Below are positions 25,003 through 57,497 of a stretch of 64,000 nt of DNA, piece after piece (the first letter of the stretch is position 1; each line of letters starts with the position of its first letter). The position numbers and the translations under genes are program-made. The notes under the pieces were generated by a model. The model did not search any database, had not been told where the DNA came from, and saw nothing but the letters and a program-made list of their open reading frames with translations. The stretch comes from an uncultured Saprospiraceae bacterium (GTDB taxonomy: Bacteria; Bacteroidota; Bacteroidia; Chitinophagales; Saprospiraceae): the NCBI GenBank assembly GCA_938008185.1, contig CALLLR010000008.1, forward strand, positions 1,058 to 65,057. Direction: 5' to 3'.

Positions 25003-26694
25003 CTACTGCTGCACCGCCTTGTGTACCACCTTCAGCACCTCCTTTTCCAACTTATCTGCCCGCTTCGTCATGGCCAGTCCATCTTTTACTACTTTTTTCG
25101 CGAAGGCCTTATCTTTCAGACCTCCTACATTGATCTTTACGTTAAGGTACGCACCATGGACAGCGGCCCGAGCACAAAGTGCCCCTACTCCCGCGTCGGA
25201 GATAGAATTAGGATTGCCACTTTTGGCCATTGCTTCCATCAATTCAAAAGAGGCCAGAGATTGCTTCATGACGGCCAGCGGAATCTCAATGGCCCGGCGG
25301 GTAGCCGCTTCGATTGCTGCAGTTCGGGATTCTTTTTCGGCTTTAGAAGACTTTGGTAATCGGAACGCTTCCATGATTCCATTAAAAGCATTGGTATCTT
25401 CGTCTACTAGTTTCAGCAGTTGATCTTTCTGCTGTTGTCCCTTTGCCGCCCAGTCCGAAAACTCCTCCCATCGATCATCCCAACCTCTTTTATGAGCCGA
25501 TAAATTTGCTACCATGGTACCCAACGAAACACCTAAGACCCCTACGTACGCAGCAATTGAACCACCGCCCGGAGCGGGACTTTCCGATGCTGTTTCATCC
25601 GCAAAACCTTTTAAGGTACTATGCACCAGTGGCCTATCCGTGATATCTTCTAATTGGTATTCGATGATTTTTTTTCTAGGATCGAAATCACCCAACTCAT
25701 CCAATCCCAACGATTTGACGGCAATCTTAATCAGTTCCCCCTCAGAGACGCCAATGGAACGTTTTTGTTGTTTTAAAAAATATTTACCGGTATCCAGCAT
25801 CACCTCTAATGGTACCAGCCCAACCAATTCCGATCCCGTAATTCTCAATCCTCTTTTGTTGGCACTTTTACGGCAAGCTTCAAACGCTACGTGCAGCGGG
25901 GTGACCCGAATATTAGTAAGATTCATGGAAATTTGCGCAACTCCGTATTCTTCAATAAACCAGCCGATCGCCTTGACGCCCTTACAGGCACCCGGCACCC
26001 GTTTGGGATTGCCTTTCCGATTTTTGACAATGGCCCCGGTCACCTTATTTCCAATTCTTTTTACGCGACCATTTTCGCGAACATCAAAGGCTACAGAATT
26101 CGCCCGACGAACGGAGGTAGTATTCAGGTTTATGTTATAGGCGATCAAAAAATCTCTGGCACCAATCGCCGTGGCTCCCGAACGCTCATTAAACTGCGTT
26201 GGTCCATAATCTGGTTTCCAGTTAGGATCTTTTAACTTTTGGGGTAAGCCCTCGTATTCTCCCGAACGTACTGTCGCCAAATTACGACGCTCCGGTCGGG
26301 TAGCTGCCGACTCGTACATATAAACAGGAATATTCAAATCCGCACCAACCCGCTTGGCCAGTTTATGGGCATACTTTGCCGTTTCGTCCATCGTGATATT
26401 GGCAATGGGAATCAGCGGACAAACATCTGTGGCCCCCATGCGAGGATGTTCGCCCTGATGCTGAGTCATGTCAATTAGTTCACCTGCTTTTTTGATGGCC
26501 AGATAGGCCGCTTCAATAACCGGTTGTGGTTCGCCCACAAAAGTGACTACCGTACGATTGGTAGCTTTACCGGGATCAACGTCTAGGAGTTTAACGCCTT
26601 TTACTTTTTGAATCTCATCCGTAATTTTTTTAATTACTTCCGGATTTAATCCGTCACTAAAATTGGGAACACATTCGATAAGTTGTTTGGACAT
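25003..26694 (-). CDS. Bifunctional glutamate formimidoyltransferase / formimidoyltetrahydrofolate cyclodeaminase
   Basis: MSKQLIECVPNFSDG... is the canonical formiminotransferase N-terminus, and the C-terminal ~200 aa are cyclodeaminase-like. The start is taken at the internal ATG 26694 rather than the ORF start at 26766. Confidence 0.85.
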   Translation of the reverse strand: MSKQLIECVPNFSDGLNPEVIKKITDEIQKVKGVKLLDVDPGKATNRTVVTFVGEPQPVIEAAYLAIKKAGELIDMTQHQGEHPRMGATDVCPLIPIANITMDETAKYAHKLAKRVGADLNIPVYMYESAATRPERRNLATVRSGEYEGLPQKLKDPNWKPDYGPTQFNERSGATAIGARDFLIAYNINLNTTSVRRANSVAFDVRENGRVKRIGNKVTGAIVKNRKGNPKRVPGACKGVKAIGWFIEEYGVAQISMNLTNIRVTPLHVAFEACRKSANKRGLRITGSELVGLVPLEVMLDTGKYFLKQQKRSIGVSEGELIKIAVKSLGLDELGDFDPRKKIIEYQLEDITDRPLVHSTLKGFADETASESPAPGGGSIAAYVGVLGVSLGTMVANLSAHKRGWDDRWEEFSDWAAKGQQQKDQLLKLVDEDTNAFNGIMEAFRLPKSSKAEKESRTAAIEAATRRAIEIPLAVMKQSLASFELMEAMAKSGNPNSISDAGVGALCARAAVHGAYLNVKINVGGLKDKAFAKKVVKDGLAMTKRADKLEKEVLKVVHKAVQQ

Positions 26695-26921
26695 GAGTTG
26701 TTGAGTTTTGAGTTTAACGTCGTATCTGAACGATATCAAGGCTTTCTGCCAAGGCAAACTGTTCAAATCAGCAATTTTTACGTTAAGGAGAAAATTGAAG
26801 TTGTGATTGTCATAGCAATTTTTTACGCTATTTAGAACAAATTTAGATAAAAAAGAAGAAACCGGTGCTTGTCCGGATATTTATATTAGTGTAACTTTAT
26901 TAGGAATCAAAACCGTCAATC

Positions 26922-48796: not shown

Positions 48797-48810
48797 TAGC
48801 GAATTTTCGC
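48797..48810. promoter_or_regulatory. Palindromic operator-like site, copy 1 (tagcgaattttcgc)
   Basis: Half-sites gcgaa/ttcgc. Identical 14-mer to 48859-48872. Lies 45 nt upstream of the acyl-CoA dehydrogenase start. Confidence 0.4.
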
Positions 48811-48858
48811 TCAAATATAAGTGATATTTAAATAAAAATGCAAAAAAGACGCCATTAT

Positions 48859-48872
48859 TAGCGAATTTTCGC
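48859..48872. promoter_or_regulatory. Palindromic operator-like site, copy 2 (tagcgaattttcgc)
   Basis: Identical 14-mer, 62 bp from copy 1. Confidence 0.4.
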
Positions 48873-49253
48873 AAAAAAAATACTTTTTAATGATGGAAGC
48901 GCCAAATCGATTGGTAAAATGGAAATTTTTAATTGATATTTATTACAGGCGACCAATCAACTCTATTACAAATTTGGCTCCAATCATAAATGACAATTGA
49001 CCTTATAAAATTTCAATGAAAATGGTTAAATGAAAACTAACAATTCTTGATTAAACATTCTCAATCAATATGTTTTGTTTCCTAATAAATATTCATATAT
49101 TGCATGATAACTACTTTAACAATATATTTTACCAATAACCCCAATTTCACTAAATAATAAAAATTTATAAAAAGGAATGTTAGTGATTCTATGGGAGAAT
49201 CCACAATAACAAAAATACTCGAGCAATATTGTAGTGCGAGTTGACTCCTAATT

Positions 49254-50909
49254 TTGTGGGCACGGTTTCTTTATGAAAATTTATATCATGAAAAAATTAT
49301 TCTGTTCTGTTCTGTTCTGTTGATTGGTTGTCAAAAAAACCTTGATGTTGATTTACCCCTTGATAGCCTTTCCAAAGACACTACCGCTACACAAAGAGAT
49401 GGTGATAACAATCTGTATTCTAAGGAATATATTTTAGAATATCTTGAAGCTAATGAACCAATAGATTGGGAAGTAGAGAGAGACCCCAAACTACTCTACA
49501 GTATTAGTATGTACACTGATTCAATTTTAATGTTTATTTATAAACCTGACAAAGTTCTCAACATAGAAGATGAAATTTCTAGTGCTGATATCTCGGATAA
49601 TGACTGGCTTAATGTAAAAAATAGAATTCATAACGAGATTGAGGAATTGGATTCACATTTTGAAAATCTAACAGTTGATTATGAAACTCCCGTACCTTTT
49701 TCAGTAATTAAAAGTCAAAAATTTAAAGTATTTGAAAAATTATGCTCGGATAATAGTGTTCATTCTTTAGAAGTCTCATCTGATTTATTTATGATGTTAG
49801 TAAAATTTCCTAAGGAAGAAATAAATAGACTTGGATGCAGTTGTGATGAACCTTCCGAACCTTCTACATTAGATTATAGTATGTTAACTCCAGACGTAAA
49901 GGTACCTTGGAATTACGAAGAAAATGGAATTACTACATCTACATGGCAGTTATCTACTGGTTCAGGTATTGGTGTAGCAGTCATTGACTCTGGCGTTTCC
50001 TTCGCACAAGAAAACCTGGATGAAAATCAGTTTTTTAACTCTGGAGAATCTATTGGTAGAAGTGAGCAGAGGATTAATTTCTTACCAGCTAGGATCATAC
50101 CGTTTTCAGTTATAGGTATTGGCGGAATTATTACAACCGATTGGCGTGAAATTTTCGTTGAAGACACTCCACCTTCTGATGATTGTGGTCATGGCACTAG
50201 GATGGCAGGTATTATTGCTGCTCCAAGAGGAAGTGATGGAAATTCTGTCGGTATAGCGTATAATTGTGACCTCTATAACTTTAGAGCAGTGCACAATCCG
50301 ATTATTCTGACAACGCTTGAAAAAGCTGCAGTTGCAGCGGCACTATTTCAGGCTTCTTCAACATTTAATATAAAAGTTATAAGTATGTCTATTGCTCAAC
50401 CTTTTGGTGCAAGCGAAGCTATAACAATAGGTTTAGCTAATGCCTATAGCTCAGGTAAAATGATTGTATCTGCAGCAGGAAGTAGTTTTGCTGATATATT
50501 GGGCCAGCAAAGTATTGTTCTATTCCCTGCGAACGACTGGAGAACAGTAGCCGTAACGGGTATTAGAAATACTTCTTCAAACGGTCCCTTAACAGAAGAC
50601 GCAGTACAATGTACTATTTGTCACTACGGTCATAATGTTCAATTCGCAGTTATTCTGCAGGATGAGGAAGATGACGACAGGACTTCTTTGACTGTAACGT
50701 GTGATTATGATATACCAACAAACACCACAGCAAGTTCTTGTGCCATTGCCACGGTATCAGGTATTGCAGCGTTAATTTGGTCAAAAGAAGGTGGAAGTGC
50801 TTCAAGAGAAGTGATACTAAACAAAATGCGAGAAGCTTCTAGCAATCCAATAGGAGACGATCCAAATTTTGGCTATGGATGGATAAATACAGCCGAAGCA
50901 TTACAATAA
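49254..50909 (+). CDS. S8 (subtilisin-like) serine peptidase, lipoprotein; start codon ambiguous
   Basis: Asp in VAVIDSGV, His in DDCGHGTRMAG, Ser in TTASSCAIATVSG. Lipobox LLIGC. The in-frame start is only a TTG at 49254, and the ATGs at 49273 and 49288 are out of frame in the present repeat state. Confidence 0.7.
   Translation: MWARFLYENLYHEKIILFCSVLLIGCQKNLDVDLPLDSLSKDTTATQRDGDNNLYSKEYILEYLEANEPIDWEVERDPKLLYSISMYTDSILMFIYKPDKVLNIEDEISSADISDNDWLNVKNRIHNEIEELDSHFENLTVDYETPVPFSVIKSQKFKVFEKLCSDNSVHSLEVSSDLFMMLVKFPKEEINRLGCSCDEPSEPSTLDYSMLTPDVKVPWNYEENGITTSTWQLSTGSGIGVAVIDSGVSFAQENLDENQFFNSGESIGRSEQRINFLPARIIPFSVIGIGGIITTDWREIFVEDTPPSDDCGHGTRMAGIIAAPRGSDGNSVGIAYNCDLYNFRAVHNPIILTTLEKAAVAAALFQASSTFNIKVISMSIAQPFGASEAITIGLANAYSSGKMIVSAAGSSFADILGQQSIVLFPANDWRTVAVTGIRNTSSNGPLTEDAVQCTICHYGHNVQFAVILQDEEDDDRTSLTVTCDYDIPTNTTASSCAIATVSGIAALIWSKEGGSASREVILNKMREASSNPIGDDPNFGYGWINTAEALQ
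49300..49321 (+). repeat. Pentanucleotide simple-sequence repeat (TTCTG)x4 plus a partial unit
   Basis: ttctg ttctg ttctg ttctg tt, inside the signal-peptide coding region of the S8 peptidase. Confidence 0.95.
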
Positions 50910-50920
50910 ATTAATGTATC

Positions 50921-51331
50921 ATGAATGCTATTTTCAAGGCTTTACCTGTTGTTTCTCTTATTTTATACAGCTTTGCACTGCTTATCTCTCTAGTGTCTGA
51001 TCATCAAGCTAGCGTTTCTTATATCCCTTCTTCGGTAGTTGTGATTCCAATAATTCTCTTGTGCGTCTTTTTTGATTTAATCACAAAATCTTTTAGCAGA
51101 ACAATGGATGAGCCAATTATAAAAATATGCCTGCTTTTATGTTATTTTTTGAAGGTTCTGTTTTTGTTAGTCTTTTTATCAAATTCACTCAATATCATTA
51201 TTCCAAATATATTTATTAGTAAAAACCTTTCCGTCATCAGCAGTTTCACAAAATCAACGTTTACCTATTTTATTTCGACTAATTTATTGATGTTCGGAAC
51301 GTGGATCATCCTAAAATTTTCAAAGGACTAG
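50921..51331 (+). CDS. Small polytopic membrane protein (about 4 TM), unknown function
   Basis: 136 aa, hydrophobic, begins 11 nt after the S8 stop, and shares the same AT-rich composition. Confidence 0.5.
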   Translation: MNAIFKALPVVSLILYSFALLISLVSDHQASVSYIPSSVVVIPIILLCVFFDLITKSFSRTMDEPIIKICLLLCYFLKVLFLLVFLSNSLNIIIPNIFISKNLSVISSFTKSTFTYFISTNLLMFGTWIILKFSKD

Positions 51332-51346
51332 CAATTTATAAAAAAA

Positions 51347-51382
51347 GCCCGCAAACCATTCTAACCGAATCGCTTGCGGGCT
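51347..51382. terminator. Bidirectional intrinsic terminator
   Basis: agcccgcaa-(18 nt)-ttgcgggct, flanked by an A-run (51340-51346) and a T-run (51383-51392). It separates the convergent genes 50921..51331 and 51414..51896. Confidence 0.65.
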
Positions 51383-51413
51383 TTATTTTTTTGCAGTATT
51401 TTATAAAAATCTT

Positions 51414-51896
51414 TTACGCCAATTTGATCAGCAACGCTCCCTTTTCTACCGCCGCTCCCTTCTCCACCAAAATCTCTTCCACCACGCCATCCCCGGCAGA
51501 CTTAATGACGTTCTCCATTTTCATGGCTTCGAGGATGAGGAGGGGATCTCCTTTGGCGATTGTTTGACCCGCTTTGACGCTTATTTCCAGAACCAGACCG
51601 GGCATGGGTGCCTTGATCTCATTGACCTTTTGGGTGGTCACCACTTCCAGTCCTAACTCTCGCACCAGTTGATCGTATTCATCTTCTATTTTGAGATGAT
51701 AGGCTTGTCCATTCACGAGTAATTTGAGTTGTTTTTTGCCAGGATTCTGCTCCAGAATTTTTATCCGGTAGGATTCATTGTGATAAAGTAAATGGTAAGT
51801 ACCATCTGATTGCTGGATCATATCCAGGTCATTCAACTGTTCTTTTTCTATTTCAATGGTATTCTGGTCGTTGACCGTAATGGCATATTTTTTCAT
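51414..51896 (-). CDS. Biotin/lipoyl-attachment protein (biotin carboxyl carrier-like)
   Basis: C-terminal APMPGLVLEI...GDPLLILEAMKMEN biotinyl-lysine motif. Confidence 0.8.
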   Translation of the reverse strand: MKKYAITVNDQNTIEIEKEQLNDLDMIQQSDGTYHLLYHNESYRIKILEQNPGKKQLKLLVNGQAYHLKIEDEYDQLVRELGLEVVTTQKVNEIKAPMPGLVLEISVKAGQTIAKGDPLLILEAMKMENVIKSAGDGVVEEILVEKGAAVEKGALLIKLA

Positions 51897-51945
51897 AAAA
51901 GATATTTCTTAATGGTTGAGCTACTCAGGTCAGCGTACTAGTACT

Positions 51946-52359
51946 CTAGCGCTCACTGTTTTGTTGAGTAGGACGTTTGGGCCTCATTTTTCCCAGCAGG
52001 ATCATAAACCGTGTTTCAAAAATAGTAAAGAAAAGATAATTGATAAAAAATGGAATGATAAATAGTGCGTCGGGCGGTTTATTTATTTTTACGTATATAA
52101 AAACAAATCCCACCGATAACATCATCTTAAAAAATATAAACCCCATGGAAGCATTCGTAAAATCGTGCCGGTTGGGACTTTGAGCGGCCCTTAAACCATA
52201 AGCGAAAATGGCTTGGCTGAAGACGACAAAAAATAGCCAGCAGGACCACGAAAAAGGCGGTAAATGACTAAACTTATCAAACTGATGCAAGATAAATAAA
52301 ATCACCGCTACACCACCGGCAGCAATAACCAATTCTTTAAAAAAGTTAGATATAGTCAA
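51946..52359 (-). CDS. Four-TM membrane protein (ATP synthase protein I-like context)
   Basis: 137 aa, hydrophobic. Overlaps the upstream AtpZ-like gene by 4 nt. Confidence 0.5.
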   Translation of the reverse strand: MTISNFFKELVIAAGGVAVILFILHQFDKFSHLPPFSWSCWLFFVVFSQAIFAYGLRAAQSPNRHDFTNASMGFIFFKMMLSVGFVFIYVKINKPPDALFIIPFFINYLFFTIFETRFMILLGKMRPKRPTQQNSER

Positions 52360-57309: not shown

Positions 57310-57388
57310 TTATTTGCCGCTTGCTTCTGGCTACTTGCTTCACTCAACCGCGATAAAAGAGGGCAAGAAGCCAACAGCAAGTAGCAAA
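57310..57388. repeat. Long imperfect palindromic intergenic element (copy B)
   Basis: ttatttgccgcttgcttctggctacttgcttcactc-(13 nt)-gagggcaagaagccaacagcaagtagcaaa. The arms are about 75 percent identical to those of copy A at 38444-38545. Confidence 0.55.
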
Positions 57389-57497
57389 AAGCAAAAAAGC
57401 AACCCTATCTTTTTAAACTAATTTTGCACTATTCGTGACTTTATTTTTAAATGCTGACTCGCATTAAACCTTAAAAGTAATATTTTTGGGCGAAACT

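Follow-up and report, generated by a model that had tools for sequence, protein, structure and literature searches.

A perfect TTCTG tandem repeat lies at the 5′ end of an S8 peptidase gene in an uncultured bacterium of the Saprospiraceae, and its number of units sets whether an ATG start codon and a lipoprotein leader are read in frame with the enzyme. We consider it probable, at roughly 60%, that this locus is an opa-like translational switch that has been caught in the OFF state. Context gives strong backing to the step from frame logic to a phase-variation switch: other genes in the genome and the genus have the same layout, their tract lengths show no preference for any frame, and one sibling locus is polymorphic. 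Positions refer to the window, which is the whole stretch of 64,000 nucleotides that was analyzed; the source genome is a metagenome bin assigned to the Saprospiraceae (64% complete, 281 contigs, 3.84 Mb).

Sequence Context and Reading Frames of the Repeat Tract

Tandem Repeats Finder places the tract on the plus strand at 49300–49321 (period 5, 4.4 copies, 100% match). Read directly from the sequence, four perfect TTCTG units occupy 49300–49319, and two further in-register bases extend to 49321. The local order is ...TAATTTTGtgggcacggtttcttt ATG aaaatttatatc ATG aaaaaatta (TTCTG)4 TT gattggttgtcaaaaaaacc..., in which the first ATG (MKIYIMKKL..., 49273–49275, plus strand) and the second ATG (MKKLF..., 49288–49290, plus strand) share one frame. 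The tract is located 9 nt after ATG 49288 and immediately 5′ of a lipobox, TTG ATT GGT TGT (L-I-G-C, 49320–49331, plus strand), with the predicted lipidated Cys encoded at 49329–49331. In all three frames, the repeat encodes the cyclic peptide FCSVL, which forms the signal peptide's hydrophobic core. Seven consecutive A residues at 49333–49339, immediately beyond the Cys codon of the lipobox (tgt caa aaa aac), form a second, weaker slippage-prone site.

In the assembled four-unit state, both ATGs run into a TGA at 49321–49323 (plus strand) that overlaps TTG 49320, yielding products of 16 aa from 49273 and 11 aa from 49288; this reading, made in an earlier note on the sequence, is confirmed, and frame computation likewise agrees with its statement that the ATGs and the peptidase, on either side of the repeat, are in different frames. 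The same note described the long ORF as lying in another frame with TTG 49254 as its only possible start. The first part holds, as the ORF list gives a Peptidase_S8 ORF of 551 aa from TTG 49254 (49254–50909, plus strand), in a frame that is open back to 49245. The second part does not, because TTG 49320 is also in frame and is the start of the public gene call (P0001, 529 aa, beginning MIGCQKN and lacking a signal peptide).

Varying the unit number in silico gives a regular series. With 3, 6, and 9 units, translation from ATG 49273 gives 543, 548, and 553 aa, respectively, and the ATG frame reads MKKL(FCSVL)nLIGC-QKN... through the whole enzyme, whereas 1, 2, 4, 5, 7, and 8 units lead to a stop after 11–30 aa. 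The proposal that removal of one unit would join the ATG to the ORF is therefore correct, with MKKLFCSVLLIGCQKN... followed by the full protein as the product, and the addition of two units has the same effect. Two features by which a contingency locus is recognized are observed here. A perfect repeat, with a unit length that is not a multiple of three, separates the start codon from the main part of the protein, and adding or removing units in silico alternates the product between full length and truncated. The ON frames display a basic N-region, a hydrophobic core, and a lipobox of the form [LVI][ASTVI][GAS]C. Judged by this pattern, the ON form of the S8 peptidase is a putative lipoprotein and substrate of signal peptidase II.

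Chance alone does not account for the TTCTG repeat. In 100 dinucleotide shuffles of the window, no match to it arose, even with two mismatches tolerated, and period-5 repeats of at least 20 nt number two in the whole 3.84-Mb genome versus zero in each of 10 trinucleotide-block shuffles.

Upstream of the two ATGs, TAATTTTG (49249–49256, plus strand) matches the Bacteroidota −7 promoter box TAnnTTTG and contains TTG 49254; ATG 49288 lies 39 nt downstream of the start of this box. Genome-wide, TAnnTTTG is most frequent 31–36 nt upstream of the first ATG in long ORFs (38 matches versus a background of ∼15–20 per 6-nt bin). A single match is weak evidence, since the motif is expected by chance about once per 600 nt. 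A σ70 promoter scan was set aside as not meaningful for Bacteroidota, and the TAnnTTTG count was used instead.

The S8 Peptidase and Its Homologues

The long ORF matches PF00082 over aa 236–542 (E = 3.8e-22, 79.4 bits versus a cut-off of 21.8). From Pfam and the alignment, the mature S8 (subtilisin-like) peptidase is encoded at 49332–50909 and has an N-terminal region of ∼210 aa. The catalytic residues, located by alignment with homologues, are the Asp in VAVIDSG (49974–49994), the His in CGHGTRMAG (50184–50210), and the Ser in TASSCAIA (50727–50750), all on the plus strand. The peptidase frame contains 0 stops in 526 codons, as compared with 36 and 68 in the other two frames. In the TASSCA segment, Ala precedes the catalytic Ser where every aligned homologue has Gly (G[ST]S.A), and SAAGS is found at 50469–50483 where homologues have mostly CAAGT and, in a few cases, AAAGT. 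These changed residues may reflect relaxed constraint or altered specificity. Downstream, after a 12-nt gap, a called gene for a hydrophobic protein of 136 aa with no Pfam match (50921–51331, plus strand) is probably co-transcribed with the peptidase. The G+C content of 48800–50200, a segment that runs from upstream of the peptidase gene through its 5′ half, is 28–35% as compared with 40.7% for the genome.

The closest homologues of the peptidase share 42–46% identity with it. All homologues with a complete N terminus carry an ATG-encoded MKK... lipoprotein leader, with starts of the type MKKLFF..., MKKL..., or MKK..., as in MKKLFFITCSLVFISMVLVVSSC-SKQ, MKKLFFTICSLVFVSIVLVISSC-SKQ, MKRLNLIVIFAIILLSYAC-EKD, and MKKVCLIFLSGFFLTVYYGC-SKD. 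Their lipobox Cys (in SSC, YAC, FAC, or YGC) aligns with the LIGC Cys at 49329–49331. The closest homologue (L002, 46% identity) has ATGAAAAAACTA, with a −7-like box 36 nt upstream. Because the close homologues start with ATG-MKK...lipobox-Cys and because 3, 6, or 9 units join the ATG to the enzyme, the ATG, probably that at 49288, is the ancestral start codon. It follows that the assembled four-unit allele is out of frame and that the gene is OFF here. The earlier note had raised the case of orthologues that use a TTG-type start without any repeat: the repeat is indeed absent from all peptidase homologues, but each complete leader begins with ATG rather than TTG. The absence of the repeat from all homologues indicates that it is young.

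Searches for other copies of the locus gave no second allele. Apart from the window's own protein, no protein of >46% identity was found, the protein cluster has a single member, and no other assembly with the gene was found. A scan of metagenome contigs for the S8 flanks joined by 1–7 units returned 0 matches. Among 201 genomes of the family, (TTCTG)4 is present in three; the other two occurrences, at a contig end or between genes, are uninformative.

Leader Repeats Elsewhere in the Source Genome

A census of perfect repeats was made for a layout consisting of an ATG, one to six codons (usually with Met-Lys first), the repeat, the end of a signal peptide, and a long ORF. At least seven further loci of the source genome (G000), in genes for secreted proteins or lipoproteins, share this layout, and all are out of frame with their own ATG. 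(TTTC)10.25 at C20:41424–41464 leads through ...SNLSFAQ... into a protein of 1994 aa with PKD, fn3, NosD-like, and T9SS sorting domains; a search of metagenome contigs with the N terminus of this giant protein found no relative. (CTTT)8.25 at C262:481–513 precedes an open frame of 147 aa (...SLLGQC...), and (TTCC)7.25 at C256:13151–13179, on the minus strand, belongs to a lipoprotein (...AIVSCGEEE). (TTCT)9.25 at C178:303–339 is followed by a short frame, ...LFAQSNPAAPV*, with 29 codons before the stop, and (TCCT)4.25 at C271:13706–13722, 134 nt from the contig end, by an open frame of at least 54 aa. The remaining two are (AC)6.5 on C43, in front of a 611-aa ORF (...LFGQD...), and (TTCATTTA)3 on C187, in front of a lipoprotein (...VSSCEKN). 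The shift that puts these seven loci out of frame is +1 at some and −1 at others. Leader repeats of only 3–3.25 units are mostly in frame.

The repeat units are hydrophobic in every frame, with TTTC encoding FLSF, TTCC encoding FLPS, and TTCTG encoding FCSVL, so that the repeat can serve as the hydrophobic core of a signal peptide at any length. All eight loci of this genome, the S8 locus included, are OFF. Under random tract lengths, this outcome has a probability of ∼0.04 ((2/3)^8), and it counts against the switch reading.

The genome is also unusually rich in tandem arrays of 7 and 8 nt, with up to 15 copies (ACGGTAAG, ATTAGTGG, CAAAACT). Most appear to be intergenic; examples are located at C70:6637–6758, C274:9551–9754, C111:9713–9800, and C202:284–362, and at 26694–26715 and 57363–57402 of the window.

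Leader Repeats in Relatives and Beyond

Tracts of at least six TTTC units are present in 10 of 81 sampled genomes of the family. One complete genome of the same genus contains five such loci, and all five lie after ATG-AAR and before the end of a signal peptide. Across 185,579 species, each represented by one genome, the pattern ATGAA-N(4–16)-(TTTC)6 occurs at only 61 loci. About a third of these (∼20) are from Saprospiraceae or Lewinellaceae and most of the others from Bacteroidota, with a few from Aminicenantes, one from Treponema, and others.

Of the (TTTC)n loci with a long unambiguous ORF, 8 of 30 are in frame. This proportion matches the one-third that freely drifting tract lengths would give; a stable coding repeat would give a value near 100%. 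An early count, with 1 of 17 in frame, had pointed to loci that are almost always OFF, and this idea was dropped when the larger, unbiased set became available. Systematic non-standard decoding and ribosomal frameshifting were also dropped as explanations, given the same in-frame count and the need for both +1 and −1 shifts.

Tract lengths differ between orthologous loci. The C20 tract of 10.25 units corresponds to one of 9.75 units in another genome (G006, C25) with flanks that are 91% identical, and the C262 tract of 8.25 units corresponds to one of 10.25 units (L093) at 80% flank identity. In the family of the C256 lipoprotein, (TTCC)n follows ATGAAAAGAAGAT, or a similar ATG leader in more distant members. 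Over five genomes of the genus, the lengths are 5.25, 6.25, 7.25, 7.75, 10.5, and 10.75 units, and one of six loci is in frame; the proteins compared share 37–83% identity, and some are perhaps paralogues. Two still more distant members of the family (28–36% identity), one with no repeat and one with (TTTA)5, are both in frame and have plain lipoprotein leaders.

A (TTTC)n leader is also seen in three metagenome-assembled genomes labeled Eubacteriales, Saccharicenans, and Aminicenantes (L096, L101, and L115), with 6.5, 7.25, and 10.25 units, of which only the 10.25-unit tract is in frame. The gene looks like one orthologous giant secreted protein (...KLFAQSGIYDR...), and these cases indicate that the leader-repeat design occurs outside Bacteroidota as well. 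In addition, three (TTTC)8 leader loci (L091, L104, and L130) are found in one gammaproteobacterial bin labeled Halioglobus, which comes from the same metagenome as a Salibacteraceae bin. The Halioglobus-bin loci may represent Bacteroidota DNA placed in the wrong bin, or they may be genuine and extend the design to another phylum.

A One-Unit Polymorphism at a Sibling Locus

Direct evidence for a change in unit number is provided by the C256 lipoprotein family. The protein cluster of its orthologue in one genome of the genus (G004) has two members, of 296 and 317 aa, with source samples SAMN23429950 (metagenome contig L154) and SAMN23429949 (metagenome contig L153). Over an alignment of 2,095 nt, the two contigs show 0 mismatches and differ only by one 4-nt gap, located at the tract. 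With 8.75 TTCC units (L153:614–648), the frame is maintained and a protein of 317 aa is encoded (MKRRFPSFLPSFLPSFFLVFTLLAIGSC...); with 7.75 units (L154:555–585), the leader is out of frame. This difference between the two contigs indicates that slippage-driven ON/OFF change of a leader repeat does happen in the genus. Across the lineage, sibling loci carry tracts of differing length whose frame is random.

Proposed Switch and Alternative Explanations

As proposed, translation of the lipoprotein S8 peptidase would start at ATG 49288, or possibly at ATG 49273, and slipped-strand mispairing at replication would add or remove TTCTG units. Since five is not a multiple of three, each change of one unit would bring the start codon into register with the lipobox and the enzyme or take it out of register. 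A tract of 3, 6, or 9 units would specify the MKKL(FCSVL)nLIGC-QKN... form, which would be exported as a lipid-anchored protease (ON). Four units, the state of the assembly, would give the 11- or 16-residue peptide that ends at TGA 49321 (OFF). Tract length could change without harm to the signal peptide because the repeat gives the same hydrophobic peptide in every frame. At 4.4 units, the S8 tract is short even among the out-of-frame tracts found here, and it falls below the operational criterion of five units; this cut-off, used by PhasomeIt, is a pipeline threshold and not a mechanistic definition (PMC5953494). With four units being short and below that cut-off, the slippage rate at the S8 locus may be low. 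We infer that units are still gained and lost here often enough to matter, and that some cells of the population produce the ON form.

It is possible, if rather unlikely, that a one-off slip from three to four units recently inactivated the gene, with a tract too short to revert meaningfully, and that the locus is a young pseudogene. A history of this kind would account for a tract of only 4.4 units, below the usual cut-off, for the lack of a repeat in any homologue, for the unusual substitutions at conserved positions near the catalytic Ser, and for the failure of the contig scan and the single-member protein cluster to yield a variant allele. It does not sit easily, however, with a frame of 526 codons that is untouched, and even a perfect three-unit pentanucleotide tract at this exact spot is improbable, as only seven three-unit pentanucleotide repeats occur in 3.84 Mb. 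Also against an isolated event are the many similarly built loci in this genome and in the genus, one of which is proven to be polymorphic.

We regard it as improbable that the four-unit allele is expressed from TTG 49254, as MWARFLYENLYHEKIILFCSVLLIGC..., with the repeat being merely an odd spelling of a signal peptide. A hydrophobic stretch and the lipobox would be retained from this start, the frame is open to 49245, and the repeat encodes hydrophobic residues whichever frame is read. Yet the resulting N-region of 14 residues would have no net positive charge, the homologues all have ATG-MKK leaders, and the public gene call chose TTG 49320, which gives no signal peptide. The position of TTG 49254 inside the TAnnTTTG −7-like box would, moreover, place it upstream of the transcript start, although this argument is weak. 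Very unlikely indeed is an artefact of assembly or sequencing, with three or six units in the real genome. The source is a metagenome bin in 281 contigs at 64% completeness, and assemblers can collapse or expand repeats; the earlier note had itself allowed for an error of this type. Against it, a contig of 3245 nt from the independent Logan assembly of run ERR9287627 (L071) is identical to window 48801–52045, four-unit tract included, so the count is not the oddity of one assembler. The 22-nt tract is also far shorter than a read, and exact 5-nt errors are atypical of short-read data.

A wider proposal, for which we put the odds only slightly above even, takes in the S8 locus: this genus, together with a scattering of other Bacteroidota and members of a few other phyla, may possess a whole set of evolved contingency genes in which a pyrimidine-rich simple repeat (TTTC, TTCC, TTCTG, and others), hydrophobic in every frame, forms the core of the Sec or lipoprotein signal peptide.

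Comparison with Known Systems

Repeat-driven ON/OFF switching of surface proteins is textbook knowledge for host-restricted pathogens, such as Neisseria, Haemophilus, Helicobacter, and Campylobacter. In the papers searched, we found no account of such repeats in Saprospiraceae, nor of repeats in the signal peptides of Bacteroidota.

The closest parallel is the opa system of Neisseria, in which a CTCTT/CTTCT pentanucleotide repeat is placed in the signal-peptide codons and the repeat number sets the frame of the mature protein (PMC13742949, PMC5953494). Similar to opa, the S8 gene has a pyrimidine-rich pentanucleotide inside its leader codons, and the number of units determines the frame, such that control would be translational and the gene ON only if the number fits. 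The two differ in tract length: opa tracts that switch have at least 5 units, typically 7–28, whereas the S8 tract has 4; opa alleles with 1–4 units were scored as non-variable, and the PhasomeIt threshold is five or more (PMC5953494). They also differ in product and setting, as opa encodes a β-barrel adhesin of a host-restricted pathogen in 4–12 copies, and the S8 gene encodes a single-copy lipoprotein protease of an uncultured environmental member of the Saprospiraceae. Finally, the S8 tract is known from assembled sequence, in which no length variant was found.

In Helicobacter pylori oipA, a slipped-strand CT dinucleotide repeat in the 5′ signal-peptide region determines whether an outer-membrane protein is in frame (PMC10564699). 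The repeat of the S8 gene likewise lies in the 5′ coding region and sets the frame of the product. The oipA unit is a dinucleotide, the organism is a host-adapted pathogen, and switching has been shown experimentally.

The (TTCC)n and (TTTC)n leaders of the genus and family resemble the S8 leader in position, one to six codons after ATG-AAR and before the end of the signal peptide. They are likewise pyrimidine-rich and hydrophobic in all frames, they precede the same type of cargo, and they occur in the same genome. In contrast to the S8 tract, a run of 4 units of 5 nt that is unique to the source genome, they have 5–18 units of 4 nt, and one of them is proven to be polymorphic.

The mechanism itself is already known from opa and oipA, and the family-wide pattern is more interesting than the S8 locus alone. 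A practical consequence is that secretome predictions from metagenome-assembled genomes will miss genes of this kind because gene callers mis-start or truncate them, as in the 529-aa call without a signal peptide observed here. If the wider proposal is true, lipoproteins, proteases, and T9SS cargo would be switched individually by slippage, and the S8 tract would be a newborn member of the set. Pathogen-style phasomes would then exist in free-living environmental bacteria, with phages or grazers, and not an immune system, as the selecting agent. Provided that the S8 repeat and its sibling loci do act as switches, uncultured bacteria of this family would diversify their exported proteases, lipoproteins, and T9SS cargo cell by cell.
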